The notes beneath the pieces are model-generated. The model ran no database searches, was not told the origin of the DNA, and saw nothing but the letters and a program-made list of their open reading frames with translations. The translations under genes and the position numbers were made by a program. Positions 1-58,155 of a DNA stretch of 64,000 bases are shown here, in pieces. The stretch lies in the IMG/VR virus record IMGVR_UViG_3300031993_000032. One strand, 5' to 3'. Each line of letters opens with the position of its first letter. The stretch's first letter is position 1. The DNA comes from a virus (Duplodnaviria > Heunggongvirae > Uroviricota > Caudoviricetes).

Positions 1-62
1 ACTGCCAGTCGTCCGGGAGGCTGCCAGCACGAAAAGGGCTGGTTGCCCAGCCCTGATTTAAT

Positions 63-779
63 TTATTTTTTCGATTTCTTTGTAGACTTCCGTTTCTTCT
101 TGAAGCCGTACTCTTTAGCCATTTCGATAAAGGCGTCGTCGTCCATATCAATGACTACTGGAGCTTCCGGAATTTCGCTCAGGTCGTCTTCTTCGATATA
201 CCAGTCGCAGAGATTCGACTGCATTTCGTCGAGGTCGCCAGAATCTGCGTTGAATCCCAGCTCGTTCAGCTTGTCAGTCAGAGCTTCGGCCACCTTGGAA
301 TCGGTGTCGATACTTTCTTGCTCGTGGCAGCCACTCCCTTCGATACCGTCGAAGCTCCACCATTCAGAGTTACCGCATTCCCAGCCGAACGCCGAGAAGG
401 TCAGCGTGGGGAACATCTCAGTAATTGCGTAGTAGAACTCGATCGGGGCGCACCACGCAGTGCTGAAGCTGTAGACGGCTTCCAGCGACTTGCCGTCGAA
501 GCACTCGCTGGTTTCGACAGACACATCGTCGTCGCCGACATCCCACTTACATCCCCAGTGGTCGCAGCACCAGCGATACCAGTTGAACACGGTTTCACAG
601 TGGTTCTCTCTGCCGTCCTGGTAGTTGGGGTCTTTCTCGTCCATAGGCACGAGCGAATTGAACGACAGTGGAGCAGATTCGCCCTTGTCGTTCGCAGGGC
701 CACGAGCCTTCTGCATAAAAAGTTCGACATCGGCCTTCGAGCCGGTAACGGTTAAAACATTTGAACACCAGTTTGGCAT
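63..779 (-). CDS. hypothetical acidic protein (MPNWCSN N-terminus, Trp/Cys-rich core, acidic lysine-tailed C-terminus)
   Basis: ORF 63..905 trimmed to ATG at 779. CCAAGGAG RBS 8 nt upstream. Cassette lies upstream. Confidence 0.6.
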   Translation of the reverse strand: MPNWCSNVLTVTGSKADVELFMQKARGPANDKGESAPLSFNSLVPMDEKDPNYQDGRENHCETVFNWYRWCCDHWGCKWDVGDDDVSVETSECFDGKSLEAVYSFSTAWCAPIEFYYAITEMFPTLTFSAFGWECGNSEWWSFDGIEGSGCHEQESIDTDSKVAEALTDKLNELGFNADSGDLDEMQSNLCDWYIEEDDLSEIPEAPVVIDMDDDAFIEMAKEYGFKKKRKSTKKSKK

Positions 780-6901: not shown

Positions 6902-6928
6902 GATGAACTCCTTGGTTGTTAAAAATAG

Positions 6929-7054
6929 CGGTCTGGGTAGGACTCGAACCTACATCCTGCGCCCGTATGGAGCCGTTGTCGCTGCTCTTTACTAGTGTAC
7001 AGCTAGTCTATTTTCCCGCCGAAGCCGTCGCCTCGACTTTTAAGCTACCAGACC
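6929..7054 (-). ncRNA. tRNA-like element, 126 nt: canonical T-arm (GTAGG-TTCGAGT-CCTAC), 7-bp acceptor stem (GGTCTGG/CCAGACC), plausible D-arm, no encoded CCA; anticodon region atypical and over-long
   Basis: Read by eye on the minus strand. Perfect 7-bp acceptor complement 126 nt apart. T-loop matches T-Psi-C-R-A. Confidence 0.4.
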
Positions 7055-7102
7055 AATGGTGTAATGATCCGGCGGAGCAGTCCCGCCGGACCGGGTTCAG
7101 TG

Positions 7103-20073: not shown

Positions 20074-21030
20074 TTATTTTTTGCTAGTGTAGATATAGTT
20101 TGCAGCCTTAATTGCAGCTCGACAAGCTTTTTCTACCATATTCTTATCGCTTCTGAGTGCCCTAGCCCATTCCTTCACGTAGGCTGCGCTCTGTTCGTCG
20201 CACTGTGGAGTATCAAATCCGTTATCGTGCATAATCGCACAAGAGCAAATTTCTGCTATCAATTCCTCGAAAGAATAAGAATTTTTGTCCATACGGTTCG
20301 CCAATTCCCTATTCAGTCGCTTGGAATGTCCAGTGCTATGTGCCAATTCGTGGAATACGTCAGAATAGTAGGCATTAGAATTTTTATAGCTATTCATAGG
20401 CGGTACGTGAATCTTATCCAAACTCGGAGAATATGCTGGAGTAGTATTCACGTGGTCAATGACCATACTCTCACGAGCTTGATAGTCCACAATAATCTTT
20501 TCTGCATCCGCAATCGGATTATTATGGTGTTCCTCGGCCTTTTTCGCAAACTTTAAAGGACAGTCTACCTCTCGGCCTACCTGCCATACAGTAGACGCTT
20601 TCAAGATAGGGAAATGCCCCTTAATAGGTTCACCATTTTCGTCGAGGCGAGGCTTTCCGTCCTCATCCTTCTTTGTGTACTCTACCATACTGTAGAAGTA
20701 CACTCGATGACCCTTGACCACTTTGCCGTTCTCGTCACGCTTGAAAGCTCCCCACACGGAACCATCCTTCACGTTCGTATGGTTGCGTTCGGCTACGCCG
20801 TTCACTGTGACGAACTCGCCTTCGGTGCATCCACCTAAAGCCAGCATCAGCGTGTTAAGGAACGAATATGACTTACCGTCGCTCTTGAGGAATCCGCTTT
20901 CGGTACGGTTCCACTGTTCACGCCACGGAACGCATCCCTTATCCAAACAAGCCAAAAACTTGTCCGTAATGTCCGCCATAATCTCGGCGGATACCTCGCT
21001 TGAGGTCTTTTTTGTTTTCGTGTATGCCAT
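20074..21030 (-). CDS. ardC: ArdC-like antirestriction protein (N-terminal ssDNA-binding domain + C-terminal HExxH zincin)
   Basis: CVPWREQW...SYSFLNTLML in the N-terminal domain. HELAHSTGH...NYI in the C-terminal domain. ACGGAGA RBS. The ORF-track TTG start trimmed to ATG. Confidence 0.7.
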   Translation of the reverse strand: MAYTKTKKTSSEVSAEIMADITDKFLACLDKGCVPWREQWNRTESGFLKSDGKSYSFLNTLMLALGGCTEGEFVTVNGVAERNHTNVKDGSVWGAFKRDENGKVVKGHRVYFYSMVEYTKKDEDGKPRLDENGEPIKGHFPILKASTVWQVGREVDCPLKFAKKAEEHHNNPIADAEKIIVDYQARESMVIDHVNTTPAYSPSLDKIHVPPMNSYKNSNAYYSDVFHELAHSTGHSKRLNRELANRMDKNSYSFEELIAEICSCAIMHDNGFDTPQCDEQSAAYVKEWARALRSDKNMVEKACRAAIKAANYIYTSKK

Positions 21031-21167
21031 AATCAATTCTCCGTTGAGTGGTGTTCCGTAAGCCCCATCGGCTTACATAATCTTAATAATCCCACGAGGC
21101 AGTCCCGTAGGCAGTGTGCCAGTCTGTCGCCGTATACGGCACACAATTGGGGCTTTCGCCCCTTTGT

Positions 21168-24356: not shown

Positions 24357-25837
24357 TATATAAACTTACTTATGAATTGAAGTTAGTAGGATTTCTTCAG
24401 TTCTAAGAAAGAGTTTAGATGCCCTGAAGACGCTAAATCCTACACTAAGTGTCTTCGGGGCATTTCCTATTATATGATTACGACCGCCCAGAAAATAATG
24501 CTTATCGTAGACAAGAAGACTGCAAGTACGTTGAATCGTGCATGCGGTTGTGCTCGCTACGCATACAACTGGGCTAGGGACACCTGGTTTGCCAAGAAGG
24601 CTGCTGGCCATAAATCGGTGACGTGCGCGGAACTACGCAAAGAGTTCAACGAACAAAAGACTGATTGGATGTACGAGAGTCCCAAAGGCTCTATGGACCA
24701 AGCTATTAAGAACTTCGTTCTCGCCAAGAAACGGCATTACGAGAATCTTGAACTGTTCGGATTTCCCAAGCGTAAGAAATACAAGTCTAAGCGGTCATTC
24801 TACATAGAGAACGACAAGGCGAGGATAGTCGATCCTACTCGTGTCAAGTTGCCGTTAATCAAGCTTCCAGTCAGACTGGCGGAGCCAGTGCGGCTAGAAT
24901 GCCTATCTGGTAAGATAAACAACTTCGTTGTATCTAAGGGAAGCAACGACCGTTGGTACATCTCGATTTCCTATACTTACGATGACACTAATAGTTTGTA
25001 TGGAACTGGTGAGAATGGCCTTGTCGGTATAGACATAGGAGTTAAGACGCTGATGCAGTTATCGACAGGGGAATGCGTCGCCAATGAGCATATCAACAAG
25101 ACGCATTGCAAGCGACTTAGACGATATCAGAGGATGATGTCCCGCCGTAAGTATAATTCTACGCATTACAAGGACATCAAGAAGACTTTCAACAAGCAGA
25201 ATGCTTATATCAAGAACTTCAGAAAGGACTTGATACACAAGGCGACGACAGAGATTGTCAAGCACAATATGGTTGTCGCCATAGAGGACTTGAACGTCAA
25301 GGGAATGATGTCCAATCATAAGTTGGCGTCGGCGATTTCGGACTGCGGATTCGGCATGATCCGTAGGTTCCTTGAATACAAAAGTGCCAAGTACGGAACA
25401 TTACTTTTGAAGGTGAACCGATGGTTCCCATCCAGCAAAACTTGTTCCGGGTGTGGACATACGAAAGAAAAACTTTCATTGTCCGAACGAGAGTTCATCT
25501 GTGAGGAATGCGGACTGGTTATCGACCGAGATACTAACGCCGCAATCAATATCCTTGCAGAAGCCTTGTTCAATGAACTATATAAGAGATTCAATACCGA
25601 CATTGCCCGTCGGAAATTCACGCCAGCGGACTTGGTAGCTCTGGCCTCATCCCTTTCGGGATCTGGTGAACCTACCGAGGTCGATGCTCATTGCTTACTT
25701 ACCAGAGATGGTAGGGCGGCTATGGTGGACGATTTCTTCAATCGTCTATGGAATCAAGTTGCTATCGCAACCGTAAATCGCTATATTTAAGTCATAGACA
25801 ATTCCGTCTATACTTTTATATACATTTTATGAGGCAG
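24357..25837 (+). mobile_element. IS200/IS605-family element carrying only tnpB (copy 1); the left-end hairpin co-varies with copy 3
   Basis: Ends mapped by aligning this copy to the one at 56125-57591. About 90 percent protein identity between the two tnpB genes. Confidence 0.65.
24474..25790 (+). CDS. tnpB: TnpB (OrfB_IS605) RNA-guided nuclease-like protein, 438 aa
   Basis: RuvC motifs and a C-terminal CxxC...CxxC zinc finger (CSGCGH...CEECG...DRDTNAAINI). Confidence 0.85.
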   Translation: MITTAQKIMLIVDKKTASTLNRACGCARYAYNWARDTWFAKKAAGHKSVTCAELRKEFNEQKTDWMYESPKGSMDQAIKNFVLAKKRHYENLELFGFPKRKKYKSKRSFYIENDKARIVDPTRVKLPLIKLPVRLAEPVRLECLSGKINNFVVSKGSNDRWYISISYTYDDTNSLYGTGENGLVGIDIGVKTLMQLSTGECVANEHINKTHCKRLRRYQRMMSRRKYNSTHYKDIKKTFNKQNAYIKNFRKDLIHKATTEIVKHNMVVAIEDLNVKGMMSNHKLASAISDCGFGMIRRFLEYKSAKYGTLLLKVNRWFPSSKTCSGCGHTKEKLSLSEREFICEECGLVIDRDTNAAINILAEALFNELYKRFNTDIARRKFTPADLVALASSLSGSGEPTEVDAHCLLTRDGRAAMVDDFFNRLWNQVAIATVNRYI

Positions 25838-34222: not shown

Positions 34223-35848
34223 TTATTCCCAAGGGAGCTTGCGGTCAGACTTCGGCTGAGCCTTCTTGACGTTGTTTACAACGGTCTTGAGCTGTTCAGC
34301 GGTCATCTTGGGTGCAGCCTTCGGTTCTTCGGCCTTGGGAGCTTCGGCAGCCTTCGGTGCTTCGTTCACGACAGTACACTGGCACGGTTCTGCCTTGTTG
34401 GAACCTACTCCAGCAAGCTTGGCACCGAACATGGAGCTGAGCACGTTCGGAAGATTGATGCCAAGGGATTCGGTGAGACCGTTGGACATCTTGGTAAGAG
34501 TGCTGATAAGGTTGCCAGTGAGATTTTCTGGGCCGTGTTCGCCATACATGACGAGGCTTCCGATCTTTTCCCACGGCTTGGCGAGAGATTCTGCCATGTG
34601 CGGCAACTGTTCGAAGTACTTTTCGAGAGCCTTGAGCTGCATTTCTTGACGAGCAGCTTCGCCGTACTTCTGCATTGCTTCTGCCTTCTGGTCGAGGGCA
34701 GCGGCTTCTGCAAGACCCTTTGCCTTGATGGCATCAGCCTCAGCTTCACCACGAGCACGGATAGCTTCAGCGTCGTTGAATGCACGAGTCTTTTCGGCTT
34801 CGGAAATCTGCTTGATGGCTTCTGCTTCTTGAGTCTTTGCGAAGAGCTTTGCTTCGGCATCCTTGTTCTGGCGGTAGAGGTCAGCTTCAGAGTTCTGGAT
34901 CTGGGCTTGACGGTTAGCTTCGGCCTTCTTCTGGATTTCAGCTTCGAGTTCTTTCTGCTTCACAGTGACCATGCGTTCACGGATTTCGGCTTCCTTTTCT
35001 TGGCGAGCGCATTCCGCTTCTGCAGCCTTGATATTAATGGTCTTCTGCTGTTCTTGCTTCTGGATTTCGTATGCGGCGTCTGCTTCGGCCTTTTTGGTGT
35101 CGGCTTGACGCTTAAGGTCAGCCTTCTTCACTTCGAGGTCATTCTGCTTCTGGGCGATTTCGAGGTCAGCAGCGACCTTAGCATCGTTGGCTTCCTTTGC
35201 AGCCTTGGATTCGGCGATGCTAATATCACGGTCGGAATTAGCTTTAGAGATCGCCGCAGCCTTACGAATAGCGGATGTCTTGTCTACACCGAGGTCTTTG
35301 ATGACGCCCTTGTCGTCAACAAAGTTCTGGATGTTGAAAGTCTGGATTTCCAAGCCGAGTTTCTTGAGGTCTGGGTCAGCATTTTCACGAACGAGATCAG
35401 ACACACCCTTACGGTCATTGACAAGCTTGACGAGTTCCATCTGGCCGACAATTTCACGCATGTTGCCTTCCAGGATGTCCTTGATGTTGCTTGCAATGTT
35501 TTCTGTAGAGTTATTCAAGAAGTTCTGGGCAGATGCTTCCAAAAGTTTTTCATCATCAGACACCTTCACTGTCACGACGGCATCGACGTCAACGTTGATG
35601 TAGTCGCTTGTCGGAATTGCCTTGGTCTTCACGTCGATGGGGAAGAGCTTCAAGCTAAGCTTGTCGGCTCGTTCCAAGAACGGAATCTTGAATCCGGCAT
35701 GGCCGATGACGGTGCGGCGCTTGCGGAAACCGGAAATGATGATGACTTCGTCGGGTGCGGCCTTGATATAGGACACGCAGAAGAGGATAATGAGGAAGAG
35801 CACGACGACTGCAATTCCACCATAGAGCAGAATACTGGAAAGATCCAT
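34223..35848 (-). CDS. flotillin-like SPFH/band-7 protein (N-terminal TM, SPFH domain, long EA/KA-rich coiled-coil)
   Basis: Domain architecture recognised by eye. AAGGAAA RBS. Confidence 0.75.
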   Translation of the reverse strand: MDLSSILLYGGIAVVVLFLIILFCVSYIKAAPDEVIIISGFRKRRTVIGHAGFKIPFLERADKLSLKLFPIDVKTKAIPTSDYINVDVDAVVTVKVSDDEKLLEASAQNFLNNSTENIASNIKDILEGNMREIVGQMELVKLVNDRKGVSDLVRENADPDLKKLGLEIQTFNIQNFVDDKGVIKDLGVDKTSAIRKAAAISKANSDRDISIAESKAAKEANDAKVAADLEIAQKQNDLEVKKADLKRQADTKKAEADAAYEIQKQEQQKTINIKAAEAECARQEKEAEIRERMVTVKQKELEAEIQKKAEANRQAQIQNSEADLYRQNKDAEAKLFAKTQEAEAIKQISEAEKTRAFNDAEAIRARGEAEADAIKAKGLAEAAALDQKAEAMQKYGEAARQEMQLKALEKYFEQLPHMAESLAKPWEKIGSLVMYGEHGPENLTGNLISTLTKMSNGLTESLGINLPNVLSSMFGAKLAGVGSNKAEPCQCTVVNEAPKAAEAPKAEEPKAAPKMTAEQLKTVVNNVKKAQPKSDRKLPWE

Positions 35849-37658: not shown

Positions 37659-38915
37659 TTATTTGACAGTTTCAATTTTGTAAATAAGTGTGCTGTTACC
37701 CATCTTGATTTCAAGATGGTTAGGGAATGCCGCAGCAATCTTTGCGTATTCAGCTTCCAAGAGTTCGCTGGCCTTGATGCCGAATTCCTTGCCTTGAGCA
37801 ATCCCCATTGACTGCACGGTATCATTGATAGCCTTGCGGTCTGGTTCATTATCCTTCAGATAGCAAGCAGCCGGAAGCTGTTCCAGCCAAGCCCTTTCGC
37901 AATAATAGTCTCTCATGAGAGCAAGCAACAGCTCATACTCACCAGAAACGAAGTTCACCAGAGACGTCCAGTACTTGCCATCGTCCGGATTCCACGCATA
38001 CACGTTACCGTATGAACGGAGCCAGTTCCACAGCTTTCGTTCATCACGTGTAGGAACAAACGCTTCCAGATTGATTTCACTGGCAGCAGTGAAGCAGATT
38101 GCCGGGAACAAGTTATCCTTGGTCAGCAATTCGTCGCATTCGATCAGCTGACACTTGACTTCGTACGGATCCAGACCGTCAAATCCTTCGATATGCCGAA
38201 GCAAGCCGTTCCAAATCAACCTATCAATGAAGTCCGGAGTATCGGCATAGTCCTTCAGTTTCAAGAATTCGGCACGGATACGTTCATTTGACACGTTTTC
38301 CAGTCGTTCTGCATTTGCACTCATGGCGCATGCAGTCTTGTTTTCAATGCTATATTCGAAGTTCACGGCGAAACGAGCGCCACGGATCATGCGGAGCGCA
38401 TCTTCTTCGAATCGCTTGTCAGGATCGCCGACAGCACGGATAATCTTGTTCTTGATATCTTCGACACCGCCATGGTAGTCGATAATTTCGCCGTCCCACG
38501 CAAGGCCGAGCGCATTGATGGTAAAGTCACGTCGAGCTGTATCTTCTTCGAAAGACTCGGTAAGCGTAATAGAGTCTGGATGACGACCGTCGCTGTATTC
38601 ACCGTCAGTACGGAAATGGGTAACCTCGAAATAGATGCCATCCCACCAGACAAGAATGGTGCCGTGTTTTTCGCCGTTGTTGTCGCATGTCTTGAAGTAT
38701 GTCTTCAAGTTATCAAGCGGCATTGACGTGGCGATATCGATGTCATGGATATCCAGCTCGTCGGTCTGGCCGAGCTGGTAACGAACAATGTCACGGACAC
38801 AGCCGCCCACGAGATAAGCCTCAGACTTGTAGGGGCCCAACTCGGTAATCTTCTTGGCTAATGCCAGACCAGCCTTCAACTGATCGTTGTTAATGTCATC
38901 CAAATTGATTTTCAT
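37659..38915 (-). CDS. cca: tRNA nucleotidyltransferase (CCA-adding enzyme / poly(A) polymerase family, head+neck only, no HD domain)
   Basis: GGCVRD, DIHDIDIAT, TARRDFTINAL and FEEDALRMIRGARFA motifs. Leaderless promoter 38923-38951. Confidence 0.8.
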   Translation of the reverse strand: MKINLDDINNDQLKAGLALAKKITELGPYKSEAYLVGGCVRDIVRYQLGQTDELDIHDIDIATSMPLDNLKTYFKTCDNNGEKHGTILVWWDGIYFEVTHFRTDGEYSDGRHPDSITLTESFEEDTARRDFTINALGLAWDGEIIDYHGGVEDIKNKIIRAVGDPDKRFEEDALRMIRGARFAVNFEYSIENKTACAMSANAERLENVSNERIRAEFLKLKDYADTPDFIDRLIWNGLLRHIEGFDGLDPYEVKCQLIECDELLTKDNLFPAICFTAASEINLEAFVPTRDERKLWNWLRSYGNVYAWNPDDGKYWTSLVNFVSGEYELLLALMRDYYCERAWLEQLPAACYLKDNEPDRKAINDTVQSMGIAQGKEFGIKASELLEAEYAKIAAAFPNHLEIKMGNSTLIYKIETVK

Positions 38916-39185: not shown

Positions 39186-39794
39186 TTAACCGTTGCGTTC
39201 CGTCGGATCAACACCGGGAACCGGACACAGCGAACCAGGGATAGTGTGCCAAGTTCCGTGCTGGATGCCGTCGGCGACAACGGTAAACTTTTCAGTCGGC
39301 TTGTTCTCGTTCGATACGAGGAACTCCAACTTACCGTCAACGTTCTTGACGTCGAAGATACGGTAATGAGCGTTGCCACGGATAGTACGGTTCAGCGGCG
39401 ACGCCTTGATGATAAAGGTCTTCTTGTTACGGTAACGGATGAACAGCGACGAACCGTGATGTAGTCCGATGAGGTAGTCTTCATCTTCGGATTCGCTTGC
39501 CTTTGCGTCGTCCTTTTCGATTTCCTTGATACCGTTAGCCAGAGATACATGAAGCTGGTTATCGTTCGGATCCACATAGCCAAAAGTAATCTTGTGCGGA
39601 TTTTCCGTAGACACATAGATACCGACTACGGTCACTTCGGTAGGTTCCGGATATGAATAGAACGTACCGTACAAGCGATACTTGAGTTCCTTCGAGCCCT
39701 TCGTTGCAGCTATGTCAAGAGTGTACTTATGGGCAACACCATGCACCGGGCATTCGATGTGCGGCAAGTCGATAGTTTGTGCTAAATTAATCAT
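39186..39794 (-). CDS. hypothetical protein (202 aa)
   Basis: ORF 39186..39884 trimmed to Met31 (ATGA overlap with the HD gene). Terminator at 39150-39180. Confidence 0.5.
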   Translation of the reverse strand: MINLAQTIDLPHIECPVHGVAHKYTLDIAATKGSKELKYRLYGTFYSYPEPTEVTVVGIYVSTENPHKITFGYVDPNDNQLHVSLANGIKEIEKDDAKASESEDEDYLIGLHHGSSLFIRYRNKKTFIIKASPLNRTIRGNAHYRIFDVKNVDGKLEFLVSNENKPTEKFTVVADGIQHGTWHTIPGSLCPVPGVDPTERNG

Positions 39795-40573
39795 ATGGAA
39801 CCTTTGTCCTTCATGCACCTCAGTGCAGCTTTTAGAATTGAGTCTTTCTTGAGACAGCCGCCGTTGATCTGAATCTTGTGGCAAGTCTCATACAGTTCAA
39901 ACTTCTTGTTGGCGTCAGCGATTTTCTCGACTTCCGGATTAGCAATCATGTCGTTCCATGTCACCAGATGGCTAGGCATCGGATGCGACATGCAGTAGAC
40001 CACGATAGGGTTAGAATTAATCTCTTCCATGTAGTCCATCGCCGGATTGCCTTCGGCATCGATGGTGCTGTTGGAATCAGCGACGGCAAGCTTGAACACA
40101 CGGTTGATCCACGGGTGCGACACGAATGACCAGCAAGCGAACTTCTGTTTCGCTTTCGGCAAGGCGTTCGCTTGCGTATGGTTCTCTACCATCCACAGCA
40201 CGATATCCTTTTCGTGCTTCTTGAATCCGAAACTGTCAAGTACAGCTTCGGCAAGCGGCAATCCGAGCTTTTCGTGACCGGCCATGTTCTTGCCGTTGTT
40301 CTTCGCTAGCGCATCCTTCTTGCCGATATCGTGCAGCAGAGCCGCAGTGACATCCAAGTAGTCGTGCTTGTCCTTGAGGATATTCTCGATGACCATCTTG
40401 GTATGAACCCACACGTCACCTTCATGGTGATAATTAACGTGTTCGCATCCGGCCATGTACTGATCGATGAAACCGAACAGAGGATTATACTTCCGTTCAC
40501 ATTCCAGCCGATCCACCACATCTGGTGCGGTCAATATGCTATGCACATTATTGTAGGTTTCCTCGATCGTCAT
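39791..40573 (-). CDS. HD-domain phosphohydrolase
   Basis: H..HHEGDVWVHT...LLHDIGK motif. AAGAGGA RBS. Confidence 0.7.
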   Translation of the reverse strand: MTIEETYNNVHSILTAPDVVDRLECERKYNPLFGFIDQYMAGCEHVNYHHEGDVWVHTKMVIENILKDKHDYLDVTAALLHDIGKKDALAKNNGKNMAGHEKLGLPLAEAVLDSFGFKKHEKDIVLWMVENHTQANALPKAKQKFACWSFVSHPWINRVFKLAVADSNSTIDAEGNPAMDYMEEINSNPIVVYCMSHPMPSHLVTWNDMIANPEVEKIADANKKFELYETCHKIQINGGCLKKDSILKAALRCMKDKGSI

Positions 40574-40742: not shown

Positions 40743-40868
40743 GGCGCGAAATATAGTAAAGATTTATAACAAACTAACTTATATTTTGTTTATTTTTGCC
40801 ACGGGTTGCCAAACATACACTCATTTGCTATATTACATGGAAACTTAATCTTTAACAAGGACTATTCA

Positions 40869-42215
40869 ATGGCAGTCAAAGTCTCCGAAAAAACGATTGC
40901 GAGGGCAAAGCAGCCTTGTCGCACCGTTTGCAAGCGTCGTGCTGTCGGCGTAACGGCAAACAAGCAGTATCAGCGCAAGAACAAAGACCAGTGGTTCGTC
41001 ACGCATCTCACCAAGACCGATACTTACAAGTTCGGCATGTGTCAAGCGGTCTTCCACAAGCATCCGAACGAACGTGCCTACTGGGAATTCAAGCTCCGTT
41101 CTGATGGCGTCGACCTGACTCCGTACTACGACGAAATCAACAAGGAACTCGATCACCTTTGCACACTCAAGTTTACTGAATGGGAACTCGAAGGCATTCG
41201 CCGTGTTATGCCTTGGCTGTCCGACGACTTCATCGAATGGCTTGCCGACTTCCAGCTCAAGCGCAAGTACATCCACGTCGACTATGATGCTACTCGCAAC
41301 GGCGGTCTCCACATCTGGGCTGAAGGCCCCGCAATCCAAGTTACCTGGTTTGAAATCTATGTTCTGAAGATTATCCAGAACCTCTTCTTCGACGATCTCG
41401 AAATCGACTGGGAAGAATCCAAGAAGACACTCAACGAATCTATCGCAAAGTGGAACGCAGCTCTCCGCCGTGGCGTCAAGTTCACGATCTCTGACTTCGG
41501 TGTCCGCCGTTCCGTGTCCGACGAATGGAACGAATACATGGTTCAGACCATGATCGACTTCTGCCCCGCTTTTGTGGGCACTTCCAACGTGTACCTTGCC
41601 ATCAAGCTAGGCTGCAAGGCTATTGGTACTTTTGCCCATGAAATGTACGCACTGTATCAAGGCATTGACGACATTCCGCTTCACCTTGTGCAGAAGAAAG
41701 TTCTCGAAGACTGGTCTGACGAATTCCGTGGCGACCTCGGTATTGCGCTTTCCGACAACTTTGGCTTCAATGCATTCTTGCGTGATTTCGATAAGTATTA
41801 CGCCAAGCTGTTCGACGGTTGCCGTCACGACTCTGGCGACCCGTATGTCTGGGGCGAAATGCTTATCGCTCACTACACCAAGAACGGCATCAATTCCAAG
41901 AGCAAGGTAGGCTGCTGGTCTGACAGCCTCAACTGCGACCAGTCCATCGCTATCGCCGAACGCTTCCACACTCGTATCAACGTGGCATTCGGTATCGGCG
42001 GCTTCCTCGCTTGCAAGGTGCTCCGCTTCAAGGGTGGCATCAAGCGTGACGCTCTCCGCATGATCATGAAGCTTGTCATGTCCAACGGCAAGTACGCCGT
42101 GAAGCTCTCCGACTCTCCGGGCAAGGTCAACTGTCCTGACCCGAAGGTGATTGAACGTGCGAAGGACGCATACCATTACGAACCAATTGCAGAAAACAAG
42201 GACGCTTTGGATTAA
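40869..42215 (+). CDS. pncB: nicotinate phosphoribosyltransferase
   Basis: Collinear matches to PncB: DTYKFGMCQAVFH, FGVRRSVS...FVGTSNVYLA, GIALSDNFGFNAFLRDF, CRHDSGDPYVWGE, VKLSDSPGKVNCPD. Trimmed to Met22 after AAGGA. Confidence 0.85.
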   Translation: MAVKVSEKTIARAKQPCRTVCKRRAVGVTANKQYQRKNKDQWFVTHLTKTDTYKFGMCQAVFHKHPNERAYWEFKLRSDGVDLTPYYDEINKELDHLCTLKFTEWELEGIRRVMPWLSDDFIEWLADFQLKRKYIHVDYDATRNGGLHIWAEGPAIQVTWFEIYVLKIIQNLFFDDLEIDWEESKKTLNESIAKWNAALRRGVKFTISDFGVRRSVSDEWNEYMVQTMIDFCPAFVGTSNVYLAIKLGCKAIGTFAHEMYALYQGIDDIPLHLVQKKVLEDWSDEFRGDLGIALSDNFGFNAFLRDFDKYYAKLFDGCRHDSGDPYVWGEMLIAHYTKNGINSKSKVGCWSDSLNCDQSIAIAERFHTRINVAFGIGGFLACKVLRFKGGIKRDALRMIMKLVMSNGKYAVKLSDSPGKVNCPDPKVIERAKDAYHYEPIAENKDALD

Positions 42216-43439: not shown

Positions 43440-45260
43440 AGAAAACATTTATGATGGCTCGTTTGGAGTTGAATTGCACAATAAATTCCGAACGAGCCAT
43501 GTCTGTATTGTATGAGTAAGCACTGTTGGACATTGAAGGATAGGTACGAGTCGCATTTCTCCGCTGCGTTCTATCCTATGTATTTGTCCGACACCAAGCG
43601 TGCCGAAATCATCCATCGTGCCGAGGAAATCCGTTCTGTACGGAACGATATATCCGACGTGTTCTTCTCTGATATGCTCGGCTTCCAAGACATGAGCAAG
43701 TTTGATGCATACAAGTATTTCATTCCCATATTTAATACAAGACTATGTAGTCATTACTTGAAGACGGCAATCGAGGATGTGTGGAAGGCATACCAGTTAA
43801 GATTTGGTGCCATCCGAAAGAAGATTGAGTTCGTCAAGGTAGAAGAGCTTGTGCCGTCCTTCTACAAGATCAATTCTTATGGGCATAAAAAGGGCGAACT
43901 AAAATCCATAGAACGGCATACCAAGAAGACTGAACTATCGAAAGTACTGACCTGGCTTTCCAGATATGGAAAGGACGAATCCGTTTACTGGCTAGAATCC
44001 GTTATTCCTAATGCAGAAGAAACCAAGCAAAAGTTTTACCGCACTATACTGGATAAGATAAGGAAGTTCGGATTCGACCGCCTCATGCGGTTGGCCTTAT
44101 TCCGTAGGAAAGCTGTATATGCGAAGTATATCGCACGAGGGAAGATTACCTTTGAATCTCTCACATTCTCTGGCCGCAGTCGTATTAAGCGTCCTATCGT
44201 GGATGCCAGAAGGAACGATACCGGCAAGTTCGACTACTTCATCGAGATTTCTTGGGACTGGTTCAACCGGGCATACCATGGGCCTAGTGATCATACGCTG
44301 TGCATCCCGATCAAGTACAACAAGGCATATCACAAATCATTACAAAGATACTGCAATGGACCGGATACGTCCTATACAATCGTAATTCGCGGCAAAGACA
44401 TCCACGTAGTTCTTGCCCGTGACGGCTACCGTTACAAGAGCGATGAAAAAATTACCGAGGAGAATACGGTTGGTATAGACGTCAATTCCAAGCACAATAT
44501 GTTCGCCTTGAGTAACGGGGAGTTCATTCCGCATGACGAGGAAATGATTGCTGAACTAGAAGACGAACTGCTGAAAATTGATACCAAGCAGAAGAACTAC
44601 GATGCTAGGTTCAATGACGCTGAGGAGCATGACGCATTCAAGATTTCACGTAAGGACAAGAAACGAATAGAAGCAATCACAGTGAAGCTGAACGCATCCA
44701 ACAAGCGTAGAATAGCTGCAATGTGCAAGGATCTTGCTGAACGTGGATTCAAGCACATCGTGATGGAGAACCTTACCGGGTTTCAAGGAAGCAAACTCAA
44801 TGCCGATGACAAGAAAGGATTTAACCTCGGTAGGTTGCATCTACGTATAGGATTGTCCTCGTTAAAAGACGATGTAGAACATATATCGGCACATTATGGA
44901 CTGGGATTTTCACTCGTCCAGCCAGAATATACCTCGAAGATGTGCCCGGAATGCGGTGGAATAGATGACCGTAACCGTCAGACTCAGGAAGATTTCAAGT
45001 GTGTGTACTGCTTGCATACAGACAATGCAGACCACAACAGTGCGATTAACATCAAGTTCCGCCTTACCTCGACCGTGTTAAGAGGGAACTTGCTCGAAAG
45101 GGTAGGGGATAGCGGATATAGGTACTTTCAGCCAAAGAGCTTGTTCAGGTGGCAAGTAAGGAAGTGCCTAGAAAAATGTCGTTGCAATGGTCTGTTCAAA
45201 CGGACTATAGGAAATCACGAAAGACTTACCATAAGTAAGTTTGAGTAGATTTCAGTCAAC
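43440..45260 (+). mobile_element. second, distinct IS605-family tnpB element (approximate ends); left-end inverted repeat ATGGCTCGTT/AACGAGCCAT at 43452-43500
   Basis: TnpB ORF plus the left-end hairpin. The right end must lie within a few nt of the tnpB stop, because pncA homology resumes at about 45265. Confidence 0.45.
43512..45248 (+). CDS. tnpB: large TnpB-like protein (578 aa; RuvC-I VGIDVN, RuvC-II MENL, RuvC-III NADHNSAINI, zinc finger CPECGG...CVYC)
   Basis: Motifs read by eye. Confidence 0.8.
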   Translation: MSKHCWTLKDRYESHFSAAFYPMYLSDTKRAEIIHRAEEIRSVRNDISDVFFSDMLGFQDMSKFDAYKYFIPIFNTRLCSHYLKTAIEDVWKAYQLRFGAIRKKIEFVKVEELVPSFYKINSYGHKKGELKSIERHTKKTELSKVLTWLSRYGKDESVYWLESVIPNAEETKQKFYRTILDKIRKFGFDRLMRLALFRRKAVYAKYIARGKITFESLTFSGRSRIKRPIVDARRNDTGKFDYFIEISWDWFNRAYHGPSDHTLCIPIKYNKAYHKSLQRYCNGPDTSYTIVIRGKDIHVVLARDGYRYKSDEKITEENTVGIDVNSKHNMFALSNGEFIPHDEEMIAELEDELLKIDTKQKNYDARFNDAEEHDAFKISRKDKKRIEAITVKLNASNKRRIAAMCKDLAERGFKHIVMENLTGFQGSKLNADDKKGFNLGRLHLRIGLSSLKDDVEHISAHYGLGFSLVQPEYTSKMCPECGGIDDRNRQTQEDFKCVYCLHTDNADHNSAINIKFRLTSTVLRGNLLERVGDSGYRYFQPKSLFRWQVRKCLEKCRCNGLFKRTIGNHERLTISKFE

Positions 45261-47280: not shown

Positions 47281-48456
47281 TTATTTGTCAATGTAACGCC
47301 GTCCGATCTGCCTTGCGGCCAGGATACAATCATCCATGTCCATGTAGCTGTATGTGCCAAGTCGACCGACAAACTGAACATTAGTCGGCTGAGATTCATG
47401 GTGCTGTACGTATTTGGCATACAGCGCCTGATTAGCCTCGTCGTTGACCGGATAGTACGGTTCCATGCCCTTCTTCCATTCAGAGGAATACTCGTAGCTC
47501 ACGATAGAGCCCTTAGTACCGTCATGCGGGCAGAACCACTTGTGCTCAATAGAGCGAGTATATGGTACATCGGTCGACGTGTAATTGCATACCGGGCAGC
47601 CTTGTACATTATCCGACTTGAATTCCTTTTCCTTGAACTTGACCGAACGGTACTTGAGCGCACCGAACTTGTATCCATAAAACTCATCGATACCGCCAGA
47701 ATAAAAGACCCTTTTACCCTTGATACCAAGTTCAGCAAGCTTCTGATATGGCGTGTCCAGCATAATATCCAAGCGGATGTCATCATATTTGTTTACTTCA
47801 TTGAACATATTCTCAATGACGCTTGTATAACCGTCGTCTGGCATCAGCTGGTACGTATCATTGAAATAATTATTGTCGAACGTAAAACGCACGGGGAGAC
47901 GCTTGATGATGCTAGCCGGAAGGTCTTCGCACTTCCGACCCCACTGCTTCTCTGTGTAGCCCTTGACGAGTGTATTGAAGATGGTCGTGCCGACCATTGA
48001 GATGGCTTGTTCGGCAAGGTTCTTCGGTTCCTTGATACCAGCTGCGTCGATTTCCTTCTGGATAGCAGCCTTGATTTCATCCGGTGTCGTAAGTCCTGGG
48101 AACAACTGCACGAACGTATTCATGTTGAATGGCATGTTGTACATTCGTTTCGTTCCGTCTGGCTGTGTAAACACGGCGATCGGCTGGTTGATGAACGGAC
48201 TCCATTCTCCGAACTGCTGGATATAGGACGCAGCAAAGTCATTGGACGTATGGAAAATATGGGCACCGTACTTATGTACGTCAATTCCGTTCTTCTTTTC
48301 GGTGTAGCAGTTACCGCCTATATGGTTACGACGGTCGATGACGAGCATCTTGATATTAGCATCCCAGCGGCTATTGCTTGCGATGGTTTCTGCGATGGTA
48401 GCGTTGGTTAGACCAGCGCCGACAAATATAAAGTCGTAGTTCTTTATGTATTTCAT
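47281..48456 (-). CDS. glf: UDP-galactopyranose mutase
   Basis: FIFVGAGLTNATIAE..LVIDRRNHIGGNCYTE..GIDVHKYGAHIFHT matches Glf. ORF trimmed to Met112. TATATT 6 nt upstream of the ATG. Confidence 0.85.
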   Translation of the reverse strand: MKYIKNYDFIFVGAGLTNATIAETIASNSRWDANIKMLVIDRRNHIGGNCYTEKKNGIDVHKYGAHIFHTSNDFAASYIQQFGEWSPFINQPIAVFTQPDGTKRMYNMPFNMNTFVQLFPGLTTPDEIKAAIQKEIDAAGIKEPKNLAEQAISMVGTTIFNTLVKGYTEKQWGRKCEDLPASIIKRLPVRFTFDNNYFNDTYQLMPDDGYTSVIENMFNEVNKYDDIRLDIMLDTPYQKLAELGIKGKRVFYSGGIDEFYGYKFGALKYRSVKFKEKEFKSDNVQGCPVCNYTSTDVPYTRSIEHKWFCPHDGTKGSIVSYEYSSEWKKGMEPYYPVNDEANQALYAKYVQHHESQPTNVQFVGRLGTYSYMDMDDCILAARQIGRRYIDK

Positions 48457-48507
48457 GCAGTTAATATAGCAAAAAGAACTATAAACGGCTATAAAAGGAG
48501 GTTCGAC

Positions 48508-49482
48508 ATGACTCCAGAAACAATCGCTAGCCGTGAGGCCAAGTTTGCCAATACCTTGACGGATTCGTCCGGCAAGAAGTTCACCGCTGGAAACCCGATC
48601 GATATCGGTGACGGCTTCAGCATCATTCCCATCAATCCTGGGTTCAAGACCTATTTCTACCAGACACGTACGGTAAAGACGCAGATATGCCTCCATTTCA
48701 CCGTAGGCGTGATTACAGGCGACGTTGCGTCCTTGACAAAGGAGAACAACCACATGTCGGTTCCGTACGTCGTAGACCGCTGTGGACACATCTACAGGCT
48801 TTTCGATGACGCCTTCTGGTCATACCACCTCGGATCCACCGCTATTGGCGGAAATGCAGTAATGTCAAAGCAGTCCATCGGTATCGAGATATCGAACTAC
48901 GGGCCCCTTAAGGACAAGGAACAGAACGGAAACTATCTCGACGCATACGGAAACCTATACACCAAGGATCCGGTAAACGTCGACTTCGTTTCGTATCGTG
49001 GATATAACTGCTATGCAAAGATGACGTCGGTGCAGAAACAAGCTATTGCTCACTTGCTTAAGTATCTGTCGGAGAAGCACGATATTCCGCTTACCTTCAA
49101 GGAACTGATCGGAGACGTGTTTGAATCTGCAGAACAAGCAGTCGCCTACAAAGGCATCTTCTGTCACTCGAACGTGAGGAAGGACAAGTACGACATGCCT
49201 CCGGAATTCACCTTGCAAATCAAGGACGCTCTTGATGAAATGAACAAGGTTGAGGAACCAGTTGCTGTAGAACCAGAACCTACCGAGGAGCAGGAACCAG
49301 TCGTGGAAGATCCTCAACCGGAGACCGATTTCGTCAAGCGTGATTTCGTCGTCAAGGAAACCGAAGACGGCGACCCTTACGTCGCCGAAGTGGAATCAAG
49401 TGAACCAGCCGAGGAGCAAGTCCATTTGACATGGTTCGACAATTTTGTGAACTGGATCAAGTCACTGTTTAAGTCTCGGTAG
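48508..49482 (+). CDS. N-acetylmuramoyl-L-alanine amidase (Amidase_2/PGRP, T7-lysozyme-like) with acidic C-terminal extension; probable lysin
   Basis: ICLHFTVG, SIGIEISNYG and CHSNV...DMPPEF motifs. AAAGGAGG RBS. Confidence 0.75.
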   Translation: MTPETIASREAKFANTLTDSSGKKFTAGNPIDIGDGFSIIPINPGFKTYFYQTRTVKTQICLHFTVGVITGDVASLTKENNHMSVPYVVDRCGHIYRLFDDAFWSYHLGSTAIGGNAVMSKQSIGIEISNYGPLKDKEQNGNYLDAYGNLYTKDPVNVDFVSYRGYNCYAKMTSVQKQAIAHLLKYLSEKHDIPLTFKELIGDVFESAEQAVAYKGIFCHSNVRKDKYDMPPEFTLQIKDALDEMNKVEEPVAVEPEPTEEQEPVVEDPQPETDFVKRDFVVKETEDGDPYVAEVESSEPAEEQVHLTWFDNFVNWIKSLFKSR

Positions 49483-50359
49483 GCTCTTTTTCGTTCGCAT
49501 ACAGCACAGCATCTTCGCCACGGAAAATAACGTCCGTGGCGTTCTTGATATCGTCGATACCAGCGGCTGGACTGTTTAACGGCATGTAAATAGGATCCAG
49601 CTGATATGGAAGACTATTGCTCCACGAGGTGGCCAGTTTCACGTAGTATTCCTGGATTTCCGTACGGATACATGTATCAGGAATCTTCGCCGCCACTTCT
49701 GGTTTCAGCTTGCTGCGGTCGATGTCTACCGGCTTTTCCACGTTGACACGGTGATAGAACGTACCGTAGCGAGCTTCCATAGGATAGCCCTTCCAGTCGC
49801 TACCGATGATTTTGAGCTTTTCGTCCGTGTTCAGACCGTCGCATTTCTTGTGGCCGACCTTGTATCGAGCTGCAGAGCTTACGGCATTACGGACAGCATC
49901 ACGGTAACGGAAACGCAGCGCATTGACTGCTTCCCATTCATCCGGCACGTTGAATACACGGCAGTCGAACAGCGGTAAGCCAACCGTTGGAGTGTCTGGA
50001 TCGATGAACTTACTGAACCAATAGGTAGCGGTCGACGCAATGACGCTGTTCATCTTGGACAACTTACCACTCAAGAAAGCTTCCGTAGTCGGCTTGAACA
50101 GCAGAGTGATTTCATCGGACTGCACATAGGTCAAGATAGGGTCAAACGTCTCTGTCAGCTTCTTGGCGGTCTCTTGCATAGCCTTGACGAAACGATTGTC
50201 GAACGGCTTGTGTATCCGCTTGGTATAGGTATGGAACGCCTTGCCGTCCACACGAGCGATGAACGGCAGCGATGGGTCAATTTTGTGTTCGGTAAACTGG
50301 TGTTCGTATGCCTTGATACGGTCGCCAAGCTTCATAGTATCTGATTGTATTCTTTCCAT
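49469..50359 (-). CDS. thg1: Thg1-like tRNA-His guanylyltransferase (3'-5' nucleotidyltransferase) with about 90-aa C-terminal extension
   Basis: KLGDRIKAYE...FIARVDGKAFHTYTKRIHKPFDNRF...YVQSDEITLLF matches the Thg1 core. ATG 7 nt after promoter 50367-50395. Confidence 0.7.
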   Translation of the reverse strand: MERIQSDTMKLGDRIKAYEHQFTEHKIDPSLPFIARVDGKAFHTYTKRIHKPFDNRFVKAMQETAKKLTETFDPILTYVQSDEITLLFKPTTEAFLSGKLSKMNSVIASTATYWFSKFIDPDTPTVGLPLFDCRVFNVPDEWEAVNALRFRYRDAVRNAVSSAARYKVGHKKCDGLNTDEKLKIIGSDWKGYPMEARYGTFYHRVNVEKPVDIDRSKLKPEVAAKIPDTCIRTEIQEYYVKLATSWSNSLPYQLDPIYMPLNSPAAGIDDIKNATDVIFRGEDAVLYANEKEPTET

Positions 50360-50570
50360 ACTTGACAATATAGCAATTAAGAGTAAAATTGTCTACGATA
50401 AAAGCGAAATCCATCGCATTTGCGATGGATTGTCCTTTATGCTTGATTTTCCGTGAGTATTTCTTCTTGTCAAGAACCAGCCGAGTGCGAAGTGTCGCAC
50501 CGTTGCCAGTCCCGGCAATCCTTGCGGCCCGTTGGGTTCTCGTTTCCTTGATGTGTTCTATATTGCTCAT
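50277..50570 (-). CDS. small basic protein (97 aa) whose reading frame runs through the thg1 promoter and the first 90 nt of thg1
   Basis: ORF track. Promoter TTGACA-N16-TATATT at 50580-50607 with the ATG 9 nt downstream. Confidence 0.4.
   Translation of the reverse strand: MSNIEHIKETRTQRAARIAGTGNGATLRTRLVLDKKKYSRKIKHKGQSIANAMDFAFIVDNFTLNCYIVKYGKNTIRYYEAWRPYQGIRTPVYRTQN
50367..50395 (-). promoter_or_regulatory. sigma-70-type promoter TAGACA-N17-TATATT, leaderless
   Basis: Read directly from the sequence. Confidence 0.55.
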
Positions 50571-56124: not shown

Positions 56125-57591
56125 CTGCCTCATAAAATGTATATAAAGGTATAGATGACCTAAATATAGCAATTTACGGTTGCGTTAGCAACTTGGTTCC
56201 ATAGACGATTAAAGAAATCGTCCACCATAGCCATCCTACCATCTCTGGTAAGTAGGCGATGAGCATCAACCTCGGTAGTTTCACCAGTTCCCGAAAGGGA
56301 AGAGGCCAGAGCTACCAAGTCCGCTGGTGTGAATTTCCGACGGGCAATGTCGGTATTAAAACGATTATTTAGTTCAATGAACAAGGCTTCGGCAAGGATA
56401 TTGATGGCGGCATTGGTATCCCTATCGATAACCAGACCACATTTCTCGCAGACATACTCTCGTTCGGACAATGAAAGTTTTTCTTTCACATGCCCACAAC
56501 CGGAACATTTCTTTGACGACGGGAAGAACCGTCCGACTTTTAAGAGCAATGTTCCGTACTTGGCACTCTTGTATTCTAGGAACCTACGAATCATGCCGAA
56601 TCCGCAGTCAGAAATGACCGACGCCAACTTGTGGTTGGTCATCATTCCCTTTACATTCAAGTCCTCTATGGCGACAACCATGTTATGCTTAACGATTTCT
56701 GTCGTCGCCTTGTGTATCAAGTCCTTTCTGAAGTTCTTGATATAGGTATTCGTCTTATTAAACGTCTTCTTGATATCCTTGTAATGTACTGAATTGTACT
56801 TCCGGCGGGACATCATCCTCTGATATCTCTTTAGTCGCTTATAATGCCTCTTGTTGATATGCTCGTTAGCGACACATTCGCCGGTAGACAGCTGCATCAG
56901 CGTCTTAACGCCCATATCTATGCCGACAAGACCGTTAACATCTGTTCCGTACAAACGTTGGGTGTCATCGTAAGTATAGGATATCGAGATGTACCAACGG
57001 TCGTTGCTTCCTTTGGATATAACGAAGTTGTTTATCTTACCGGATAGGCATTCGTACCGTACTGGCTCCGCCAGTCTGACTGGAAGCTTGATTAACGGCA
57101 ACTTGATATGAATAGGATCGACAATCCTAGCATGGTCGTTCTCTATGTAGAACGAACGCTTAGACTTGTATTTCTTTCGCTTGGGAAAGCCGAACAGATC
57201 TGGATTCTCGTAATGCCGTTTCTTGGCTAGAACGAAGTTCTTGATGGCTTGATTCATAGAGCCTTTGGGACTCTCGTACATCCAGTCAGTCTTTTGTTCG
57301 TTGAATTCCTTGCGGAGTTCCGCACACGTCACCGATTTCTGGCCAGCAGCTTTCTTGGCAAACCAGGTATCCCTAGCCCAGTTATATGCGTAGCGAGCAC
57401 AACCGCATGCTCGGTTCAATGCGCTTGCTGTCTTGCTATCGACTATCAACATTATTTTCTGGGCTGTACTTATCATACACACAAGAAATGCCCCGGTAAC
57501 GCCTATTGTGGTATTTAACGTTACCGGAGCACCGAAAACTCTTCAATTAGAACAAGAAATACCACTAACTTATTCTATAACGAAGTTTATA
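56125..57591 (-). mobile_element. IS200/IS605-family tnpB-only element, copy 3 (inverted relative to copy 1, about 10 percent diverged)
   Basis: Ends mapped by aligning this copy to 24357-25837. Compensatory left-end hairpin GCTCCGGTAACG/CGTTACCGGGGC versus GCCCTGAAGAC/GTCTTCGGGGC. Confidence 0.65.
56160..57476 (-). CDS. tnpB: TnpB (OrfB_IS605), 438 aa
   Basis: About 90 percent identical to the 24474..25790 product. Trimmed to the ATG matching the copy-1 start. Confidence 0.85.
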   Translation of the reverse strand: MISTAQKIMLIVDSKTASALNRACGCARYAYNWARDTWFAKKAAGQKSVTCAELRKEFNEQKTDWMYESPKGSMNQAIKNFVLAKKRHYENPDLFGFPKRKKYKSKRSFYIENDHARIVDPIHIKLPLIKLPVRLAEPVRYECLSGKINNFVISKGSNDRWYISISYTYDDTQRLYGTDVNGLVGIDMGVKTLMQLSTGECVANEHINKRHYKRLKRYQRMMSRRKYNSVHYKDIKKTFNKTNTYIKNFRKDLIHKATTEIVKHNMVVAIEDLNVKGMMTNHKLASVISDCGFGMIRRFLEYKSAKYGTLLLKVGRFFPSSKKCSGCGHVKEKLSLSEREYVCEKCGLVIDRDTNAAINILAEALFIELNNRFNTDIARRKFTPADLVALASSLSGTGETTEVDAHRLLTRDGRMAMVDDFFNRLWNQVANATVNCYI

Positions 57592-57672: not shown

Positions 57673-58155
57673 TCAGCTACTAGATACAATCTCCAAATTG
57701 CTAAGTTCGTTCTCGATACGCTTTCCATCAAATATACATTCATCACGATTTTCACGCAAGGCAAGTTCCTTCGCCAGCGTACGGATATTCACCATCTGCG
57801 CCTTCATGTCGAACAAGTCCGGAACCTTCTTATTATATGCGTTTTCGTAATCGGTGCACAGCTTGCCCATAAGGGGCCCGTAGATACATTCGATTGACCG
57901 CGTGTACTGCCGGTGAAGCTCGTCGATCTTCTTCTCGAATGCACGCAGCTGGGCAGCAATCTTGATATAGCCAACAACAGAATTTTCATCCATTGTGTAG
58001 TGAACTCTTGGAAGATCAATTTTCACATCGGACTGAATCTCGTTGTCCGGCGTATCGTCGTTATCAAACTTCATGTCAAGCGAAATCGACAACGGCGTAA
58101 TCTTCTTCCGCTTTGCAGCACGGATCAGCTGCAGCAAGTCATTGTCATTTCTCAT
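57673..58155 (-). CDS. hypothetical protein (160 aa)
   Basis: ORF track. AAAGGAAG RBS. ATGA coupling to the sigma gene. Confidence 0.55.
   Translation of the reverse strand: MRNDNDLLQLIRAAKRKKITPLSISLDMKFDNDDTPDNEIQSDVKIDLPRVHYTMDENSVVGYIKIAAQLRAFEKKIDELHRQYTRSIECIYGPLMGKLCTDYENAYNKKVPDLFDMKAQMVNIRTLAKELALRENRDECIFDGKRIENELSNLEIVSSS

Follow-up and report, generated by a model that had tools for sequence, protein, structure and literature searches.

Can a gene that keeps the acceptor end and T-arm of a tRNA, yet is interrupted by long additional sequence, still serve in decoding, or has it become an RNA of another kind? The question is raised by a 126-nucleotide (nt) element on the minus strand of a 64,000-nt stretch of phage DNA (Caudoviricetes; IMG/VR record IMGVR_UViG_3300031993_000032), hereafter the window. 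An original prediction, made from the letters of this stretch, described an aberrant tRNA-like sequence and offered several readings of it, among them an intron-containing tRNA, an attachment-site fragment and a regulatory mimic. The last of these comes closest to the reading at which we arrive, a stand-alone, tRNA-Asp-derived, non-decoding small RNA of tRNA shape, to which we assign an overall probability of about 50%, with identity and maturation weighted most. Its parts differ in strength. Judged from sequence comparison, the element is very probably a selected, structured tRNA-like RNA that does not decode; its maturation by the tRNA pathway appears somewhat probable; and a role as a trans-acting mimic or decoy is one that we propose tentatively, as possible but doubtful.

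The Rfam tRNA model (RF00005) matches the minus strand at exactly 7054 to 6929, the 5′ and 3′ ends of the element, scoring 37.9 bits where the gathering score is 29 (model positions 1–71; E = 2.2e-4 over the whole 64-kb window). Both the tRNA-like character and the coordinates first given for the element are thus borne out by a covariance model, one of the checks that the original prediction had proposed. RF00005 is the sole Rfam family above threshold within the window, and no second tRNA-like Rfam match was found there even at E ≤ 10. ARAGORN, also among the programs proposed, reported 0 tRNA and 0 transfer-messenger RNA (tmRNA) genes in the window and left the element uncalled, and no other tRNA was found in ~73 kb of the phage genome. 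A custom scan of both strands of ~320 kb of fetched phage DNA, requiring 5/5 T-stem pairs, a TTCRANN loop and 7/7 acceptor stem pairs, returned the element, two homologues and one control tRNA, with 0 false positives; a relaxed acceptor/T-arm scan yielded noise only. The first homologue, L032, is a 192-nt version found by scanning metagenomes with the T-loop/acceptor 21-mer. The second, L034, measures 128 nt, occupies the orthologous site between the same flanks and was reached through a homologue of a neighboring protein of 76 amino acids (aa). ARAGORN misses all three variants. We class the element as a tRNA-like non-coding RNA.

Anatomy was read with RNA position p equal to window coordinate 7055-p, so all features below lie on the minus strand. 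The acceptor stem is perfect, its 5′ strand GGUCUGG (RNA 1–7; 7048–7054) forming 7/7 pairs with CCAGACC (6930–6936), which is followed by a discriminator G at 6929. No CCA is encoded after it, and the 3′ trailer reads CUAUUUUUAAC. The T-arm GUAGG-UUCGAGU-CCUAC (6937–6953) is likewise perfect, with a 5-bp stem and a loop that fits UUCRANY, and is preceded by a variable loop AGGAU (6954–6958) in both the Rfam alignment and direct reading; U8-A9 is present as well. For the acceptor stem, the T-arm and the missing CCA, direct reading of the sequence agrees with what was first described. The lower half of the molecule looks different. The D-stem supported by the Rfam alignment and by covariation with L032 pairs GCUU (RNA 10–13; 7042–7045) with GAGC (RNA 68–71; 6984–6987), closing an expanded loop of 54 nt with two hairpins where a canonical D-arm has a 3–4-bp stem and a 7–11-nt loop. 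By contrast, the D-arm proposed earlier, GCTT-AAAAGTCG-AGGC (RNA 10–13/22–25), loses two of its four pairs in L032, and the extra nucleotides that had been placed at the anticodon arm lie instead inside the D-loop. This loop runs, in order, through AAAA, hairpin 1 (RNA 18–37; 7018–7037), linker GGGAAAAUAG (RNA 38–47; 7008–7017), hairpin 2 (RNA 48–64; 6991–7007) and AAA. Hairpin 1 has an 8-bp stem (18–25/30–37) and a GACG loop, as read from the minimum free energy fold and from the changes in L032. The linker is identical to that of L032 at 10/10 positions and possibly supplies G18/G19-like residues for the elbow, while hairpin 2, ACUAG-CUGUACA-CUAGU, has an identical stem in L032. The supported fold thus passes from the acceptor stem to the D-stem with its 54-nt loop, then through A26 to a short irregular arm, and finally through AGGAU to the T-arm. 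The irregular arm, GCG-ACAA-CG[GCUCCAUA]CG-GG-CGC (RNA 73–96; 6959–6982), occupies the position of the anticodon arm; its flanks are identical in L032, and it is thermodynamically weak (-5.3 kcal/mol, z = 0.1).

A decoding tRNA (Tyr-GUA, Trp-CCA or Asp) might nevertheless be recovered from such a gene if the inserts were removed as introns. There is a precedent in the tRNAs of Lak megaphages, whose ‘enigmatic introns’ are inserts present or absent by genome (Devoto et al. 2019, PMC6784885); these too are oversized tRNA-like genes of very large phages. Two 7-nt loops of the element open with CU and display GUA in one case and CCA in the other, and a BLAST search gave a weak similarity to phage tRNA-Trp (E = 0.05). 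However, neither loop is conserved. The CUGUACA loop of hairpin 2 is replaced in L032, the second candidate, CUCCAUA, is AUUUA in L032 between identical flanks (GCGACAACG...ACGGGCGC), and L034 carries neither. Hairpin 2, from which the Tyr (GUA) reading had been drawn, therefore exists, but the reading itself does not survive comparison. Position 37 would be a pyrimidine in both loops. At the canonical place we looked for a 5-bp stem and a 7-nt loop with U33, a purine at 37 and a conserved anticodon, and found the irregular arm with an 8-nt loop; GUC in loop context is absent from all three variants. Excision of inserts was tried by hand on the three variants. In none of them did it restore a canonical cloverleaf with an anticodon, or an anticodon arm with a 5-bp stem and a 7-nt loop in the canonical position, and the inserts covary as parts of the mature fold. 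Lak tRNAs, by contrast, are reported to keep an identifiable anticodon once the insert is removed. Because the anticodon arm was sought and is not there, the element falls outside the decoding tRNAs, and the intron-containing decoding tRNA first suggested is highly improbable.

Comparison of the variants shows instead how the fold itself has been kept. Between the window copy and L032 there are 10 substitutions over 74 alignable 5′ positions, 9 of them in stems and every one of these pairing-neutral; counted by pair, they comprise three compensatory double and three single changes. One double and one single change fall in the D-stem, GCUU/GAGC in the window and GCGU/ACGC in L032, and the remaining two doubles and two singles fall in hairpin 1, in which all pairs are kept. 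In the two-sequence alignment of the window copy and L032, 100% of 68 cells are paired versus at most 38% when partners are slid. In L034, U-A replaces G-C at acceptor pair 7:66, a compensatory change, and two compensatory changes plus one single change separate its T-stem (UUGGG/CCCGA) from that of the window. All three variants conserve the acceptor stem and T-arm; the T-loop and U8 are invariant, as is the 10-nt linker between the window and L032. On these alignments, the acceptor stem, D-stem and T-arm are evidently kept by compensatory change, and the evidence for preservation of structure, as read from sequence, is clear in direction and thin in depth.

What varies lies in the lower half. 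The hairpin-2 arm of L032 keeps its stem unchanged, with the CUGUACA loop replaced by a structured insertion of ~70 nt; the arm totals 85 nt and folds as a three-way junction (-29.2 kcal/mol). In L034 the D-arm is intact and the anticodon arm is replaced by a rod of ~75 nt (-26.6 kcal/mol, z = -2.1). A kink-turn or box C/D reading of a UGAUGA motif in L034 was rejected, with no partner GA opposite it and just 7.3 bits for Rfam sR32. A module consisting of a hairpin with a GNCG loop followed by GGGAA(A/G) occurs once in the window (7008–7037) and twice in L032 (~521–558 and ~588–619, minus strand), where the hairpin-2 arm includes the second copy, and its repetition in L032 suggests that the insert grew by internal duplication. 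All variants thus appear to retain the top half and core of a tRNA (7-bp acceptor stem, G73, U8, a 4-bp D-stem, canonical T-arm and T-loop), joined in the window and L032 to a cargo of two D-loop hairpins with the short irregular arm, and in L034 to the rod. The anticodon domain, by this comparison, is lost and has been swapped for variable structured modules.

Loss of the anticodon, the negative ARAGORN result, the weak arm at the anticodon position and a patchy presence among relatives would also fit a decaying tRNA-Asp pseudogene, a neutral relic without function. The pattern of change speaks otherwise: the window/L032 stem substitutions are pairing-neutral in 9 of 9 cases with three pairs changed on both sides, the acceptor and T-stems covary in L034, the T-loop, U8 and linker do not vary, and the inserts are structured and non-random. 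We consider a relic very unlikely.

Its ancestry can be read from the conserved top half. A scan of IMG/VR with the shared T-loop/acceptor pattern GGTTCGAGNCCNNNNCAGACCG returned 41 loci, 40 of which are normal tRNA genes of 72–76 nt, all with anticodon GTC (tRNA-Asp). Their anticodon loop is CTGTCAC or TTGTCAC in 39 of the 40 and TTGTCAG in the exception; at the 41st locus (L075) such a gene is represented by a 3′ fragment only. The matching tRNA-Asp loci share an acceptor strand GGTCTG, in some GGTTTG, closed by CAGACC, and all have G73; ARAGORN called tRNA-Asp(gtc) at the matching position in 6/6 loci checked. The acceptor stem, G73 and T-loop of the element match the pattern of these 40 phage genes, and nt 1–26 of L034, a normal acceptor strand and the D-arm GUUC-AAGUGGUA-GAAU, amount to a near-intact 5′ third of tRNA-Asp. 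From this shared pattern we conclude that the element family descends from tRNA-Asp. Family members and phage or bacterial tRNA-Asp(GUC) have in common the acceptor GGUCUG[G/U] with [C/A]CAGACC, G73, U8-A9 and the T-loop UUCGAG, in L034 also the D-arm. They differ in that the elements lack the GUC anticodon and a canonical anticodon arm and are 52–118 nt longer, with the D-loop reaching 54 nt in the window copy. An origin from tRNA-Trp was considered and dropped, the CUCCAUA loop being unconserved and the acceptor stem and G73 fitting tRNA-Asp.

Searches for further relatives of the element returned little. Near and distant BLAST searches of the locus and the three variants against GenBank phages gave short T-arm matches only, neither the four element-specific patterns nor the two neighboring proteins with which IMG/VR was scanned had a match there, and a degenerate pattern run against the genome collection gave one chance match, in an Acidobacteria coding repeat. 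Soil contigs L026–L031 share the 21-mer and are unrelated to the phage; they carry a conserved region of ~200 nt ending GGTTCGAGTCCTACCCAGACC, nearly identical in five and more diverged in one, that has no proper T-stem, no Rfam match at the gathering threshold and no ARAGORN match. In tRNA clusters of other large phages, ARAGORN reported a tRNA-SeC(tca) (L083, 587–658) and a tRNA with a 2-base anticodon (L046, 1099–1173), which may be suppressor or otherwise odd tRNAs.

The setting of the element bears on whether it acts as an RNA in its own right. Small minus-strand genes follow one another over the first 21.5 kb of the window, and an ArdC-like anti-restriction gene closes the series. Nearly all of these small genes are preceded by a module composed of gACTGg, ~12 nt, a hairpin with GGGACTGC, tATT, 5–6 nt, TATACAA, AACCAAGGAG and ATG. 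Its GGGACTGC core occurs 29 times versus 1.5 expected, always on the minus strand (28 sites within 827–21552, and 63724–63731). The module resembles a combined terminator/promoter cassette, comparable to the early promoter stem-loops of T4, and its reader could perhaps be a phage sigma factor encoded at 58152–58892. One of the 29 modules lies directly upstream of the element (7055–7089, minus strand), with a hairpin CCGGC-GGGACUGC-..GCCGG (7069–7089) and then AUCAUUACACCAUU. This copy is missing the TATACAA box, and the element begins exactly in the place of the box; the junction of module and element is the same in L034 and L032. On the 3′ side, the trailer and the ribosome-binding site AAGGAG of the next gene occupy 6902–6928 (minus strand), with the start codon at 6901. 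The element is followed by CUAUUUUUAA and that ribosome-binding site, with no separate module for the next gene. Scans for sigma-70 promoters and terminators near the element yielded nothing informative for it.

Such a position could be explained if the element were a cis-acting signal for processing or stability, of the t-element or tRNA-punctuation type, in which cuts by RNase P and RNase Z fix the 3′ end of the message before it and the 5′ end of the message after it, and the released RNA is a by-product. The element lies between the GGGACTGC module and the ribosome-binding site of a gene without a module of its own, in the same orientation, as a tRNA-like fold between open reading frames (ORFs) in sense. 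In addition, the parts conserved in all three variants, the acceptor stem and T-arm, are those read by RNase P and RNase Z. Plant mitochondrial t-elements are reported to act in this way (PMC1920247), and, with mascRNA-type signals, they resemble the element as degenerate tRNA-like folds beside coding regions that keep these two parts. However, the downstream partner varies. L034 is followed by an 82-aa gene, whereas L032 has a different gene upstream and ~445 nt downstream (1–445, minus strand) without an ORF longer than 26 aa. The first part of that L032 stretch is AT-rich, no Rfam family matches the stretch at the gathering threshold, and it could be another non-coding region. Neighbors that differ among variants are hard to reconcile with a leader that serves one particular gene. 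The compensated D-stem and hairpin 1 and the three-way junction of L032 would be unneeded by a bare cleavage signal, and most of the 29 window modules are without such an element. The extra structured modules, apparently under selection, and the inconstant partner likewise set the element apart from t-elements and mascRNA, and cleavage is a prediction here. We regard a cis signal as the main rival, unlikely though with a real share of the probability.

The distribution of the element among related phages is patchy. An exact look-up of the downstream 108-aa protein located the same phage in several metagenomes. Identical copies of the element are present in L001, L002, L005, L006, L012 and L013, and four loci from this look-up carry the identical element. 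In L003 and L004 (~94% flank identity) it is cleanly absent, GGATCATT being followed directly by TTCTTGATACAAACCAAGGAG, which gives a presence/absence polymorphism of ~137 nt. It is also precisely absent from the closely related L040–L042, and the syntenic loci of at least 10 relatives show no element. In more distant relatives, to which homologues of the 108-aa and 76-aa neighbors led, the site is empty or tRNA-like sequence is lacking; one of the relatives is on a contig of 430.9 kb, which places the group in a megaphage clade. In the window the element is single, and none of its parts recurs there when up to 3 mismatches are allowed. It is a single-copy, patchily distributed accessory cassette.

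Clean polymorphism of this kind raises the prospect of a mobile element, such as a miniature inverted-repeat transposable element or an IS200/605-type miniature, or of a phage attachment site that merely resembles a tRNA. The 7-bp acceptor stem would double as a terminal inverted repeat, and the window holds three TnpB-like genes. These are TnpB/Cas12f-like (OrfB_IS605) genes at 24474–25790 (plus strand), 43512–45248 (plus) and 56160–57482 (minus). However, the nearest of them is 17 kb off, the element has a single copy and no clear target-site duplication, and its place within the module never varies, while the full tRNA core covaries. As for an attachment site, the earlier suggestion of an attP-type tRNA 3′ fragment conflicts with the presence of both acceptor halves, and exact copies of the T-arm/acceptor 25-mer are absent from 185,579 species genomes. 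No integrase was found among 30 ORFs scanned, a subset with the neighbors of the element outside it. Mobility or attachment is the least probable of the explanations that we weighed.

Returning to a stand-alone RNA, we propose that transcription would start from, or read through, the upstream GGGACTGC module, that RNase P would act at the 5′ end, and that RNase Z or exonucleases would trim after G73. CUA(A)UUUUUA follows the element in all three variants, and the conserved CUAUUUUU trailer would fit either a CCA-less precursor or a weak terminator. With no encoded CCA, a CCA tail would have to come from a CCA-adding enzyme, of phage or host origin, and the product would be a stable RNA of ~129 nt that acts in trans by tRNA mimicry. 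The conserved top half may keep the RNA stable and give it entry to tRNA-binding proteins, in the manner of a natural ‘tRNA scaffold’, and the fast-changing lower half could be the part that is functional or specific for a target, perhaps by serving as decoy or sponge for a tRNA-binding host factor or defense. A differing or missing downstream partner, together with structural selection on the interior, favors such a trans mimic over a gene-specific leader.

A candidate enzyme for the CCA step is encoded in the window, and Pfam confirms the genes named at the outset: a CCA-adding-type nucleotidyltransferase at 37659–38915 (minus strand; PolyA_pol 1e-29, PolyA_pol_RNAbd 5.6e-9), which could mature the RNA, an HD-domain protein at 39791–40573 (minus; HD 2.2e-5, 25.2 bits with the cut-off at 22) and a Thg1-like 3′-5′ polymerase at 49469–50368 (minus; Thg1 3.4e-31). 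They had been described as close to the element, but lie 30–43 kb from it. In jumbo phages such a gene set is already on record as a kit for RNA repair (PMC7824862). The tRNA maintenance or repair kit of the original prediction is accordingly present as genes, and its tie to the element is co-occurrence in one genome; the pairing of the HD protein with the CCA-adding enzyme is likewise a matter of genomic context. Pfam further identified the ArdC-like anti-restriction/zincin gene (20074–21036, minus), a nicotinate phosphoribosyltransferase gene (40806–42215, plus), a flotillin/SPFH protein gene (34223–35848, minus) and a UDP-galactopyranose mutase gene (47281–48789, minus). The ArdC-like and nicotinate phosphoribosyltransferase genes suggest a counter-defense set.

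Several known RNAs resemble the proposed product in part. T4 RNA C is matured together with the T4 tRNAs. This RNA (species 1, rnaC) is, like the element, a phage RNA of ~120–140 nt that is not a tRNA, with a canonical T-arm (CCGGG-UUCGAAU-CCCGG), an acceptor-like end and no assigned function. Unlike the element, it lies within a tRNA cluster, and it has no sequence similarity to the element and scores 17.5 bits on a tRNA-type model versus 37.9. Neither rnaC nor the Lak tRNAs are homologous to the element family, for which tRNA is the one matching Rfam family. tmRNA and YrlA, a bacterial Y RNA, also mimic an acceptor stem and T-arm without decoding. However, pair 3:70 of the element is U-A rather than the G3:U70 of tmRNA, there is no tag reading frame, and neither ARAGORN nor Rfam reports a match. 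The ends of its RNA lie in the acceptor stem and not in a Ro-binding helix, no YrlA or Y RNA match appeared in Rfam at E ≤ 10, and no TROVE domain was found in the same subset of 30 ORFs. Engineered ‘tRNA scaffolds’ for the expression of recombinant RNA were reportedly described by Ponchon and Dardel in 2007. L034 has the same design, a tRNA whose anticodon arm is replaced by a foreign structured RNA, although the arrangement here is natural and in the window copy and L032 the cargo sits in the D-loop.

Several results weigh against a stand-alone, non-decoding RNA derived from tRNA-Asp and must be set beside the evidence in its favor. Neither L032 nor L034 receives an Rfam tRNA score, L034 not even in a 156-nt search. 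Three variants were found in all, so the covariation is drawn from two to three sequences. In the shuffle control, 56 of 500 shuffles equal the observed value; with three variable pairs and two sequences this is near the theoretical floor, and a control on just two sequences cannot be strong. The exact placement of the element, with a promoter/terminator module on one side and a ribosome-binding site on the other, would suit a role in cis just as well. The anticodon GUC is the main identity element of aspartyl-tRNA synthetase, and its loss makes aminoacylation doubtful. Lastly, a short-word BLAST of the variable parts against ~300 kb of related phage DNA gave no significant target.

The oversized or ‘intron-bearing’ tRNA genes of very large phages have so far gone unexplained, and the one described here would be a selected, anticodon-less mimic whose lower half is swapped among relatives. 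It also exposes a blind spot of tRNA finders: ARAGORN misses three of three variants and Rfam two of three, and a simple acceptor/T-arm search finds them. We also entertain the more speculative idea, which we consider quite unlikely, that megaphages use a tRNA-Asp chassis as a scaffold for exchangeable cargo serving as a decoy or aptamer against a host tRNA-binding defense or factor. In an equally conjectural extension of it, the Thg1-like enzyme would rebuild the 5′ end if transcription starts within the acceptor strand. If the idea is true, the element would be an RNA-based counter-defense gene amid protein anti-defense cassettes. More generally, if it is expressed and CCA-tailed, the element would open a new class of small phage RNAs that use a tRNA as their chassis, with possible roles in counter-defense, RNA processing or the sequestration of tRNA-binding proteins.

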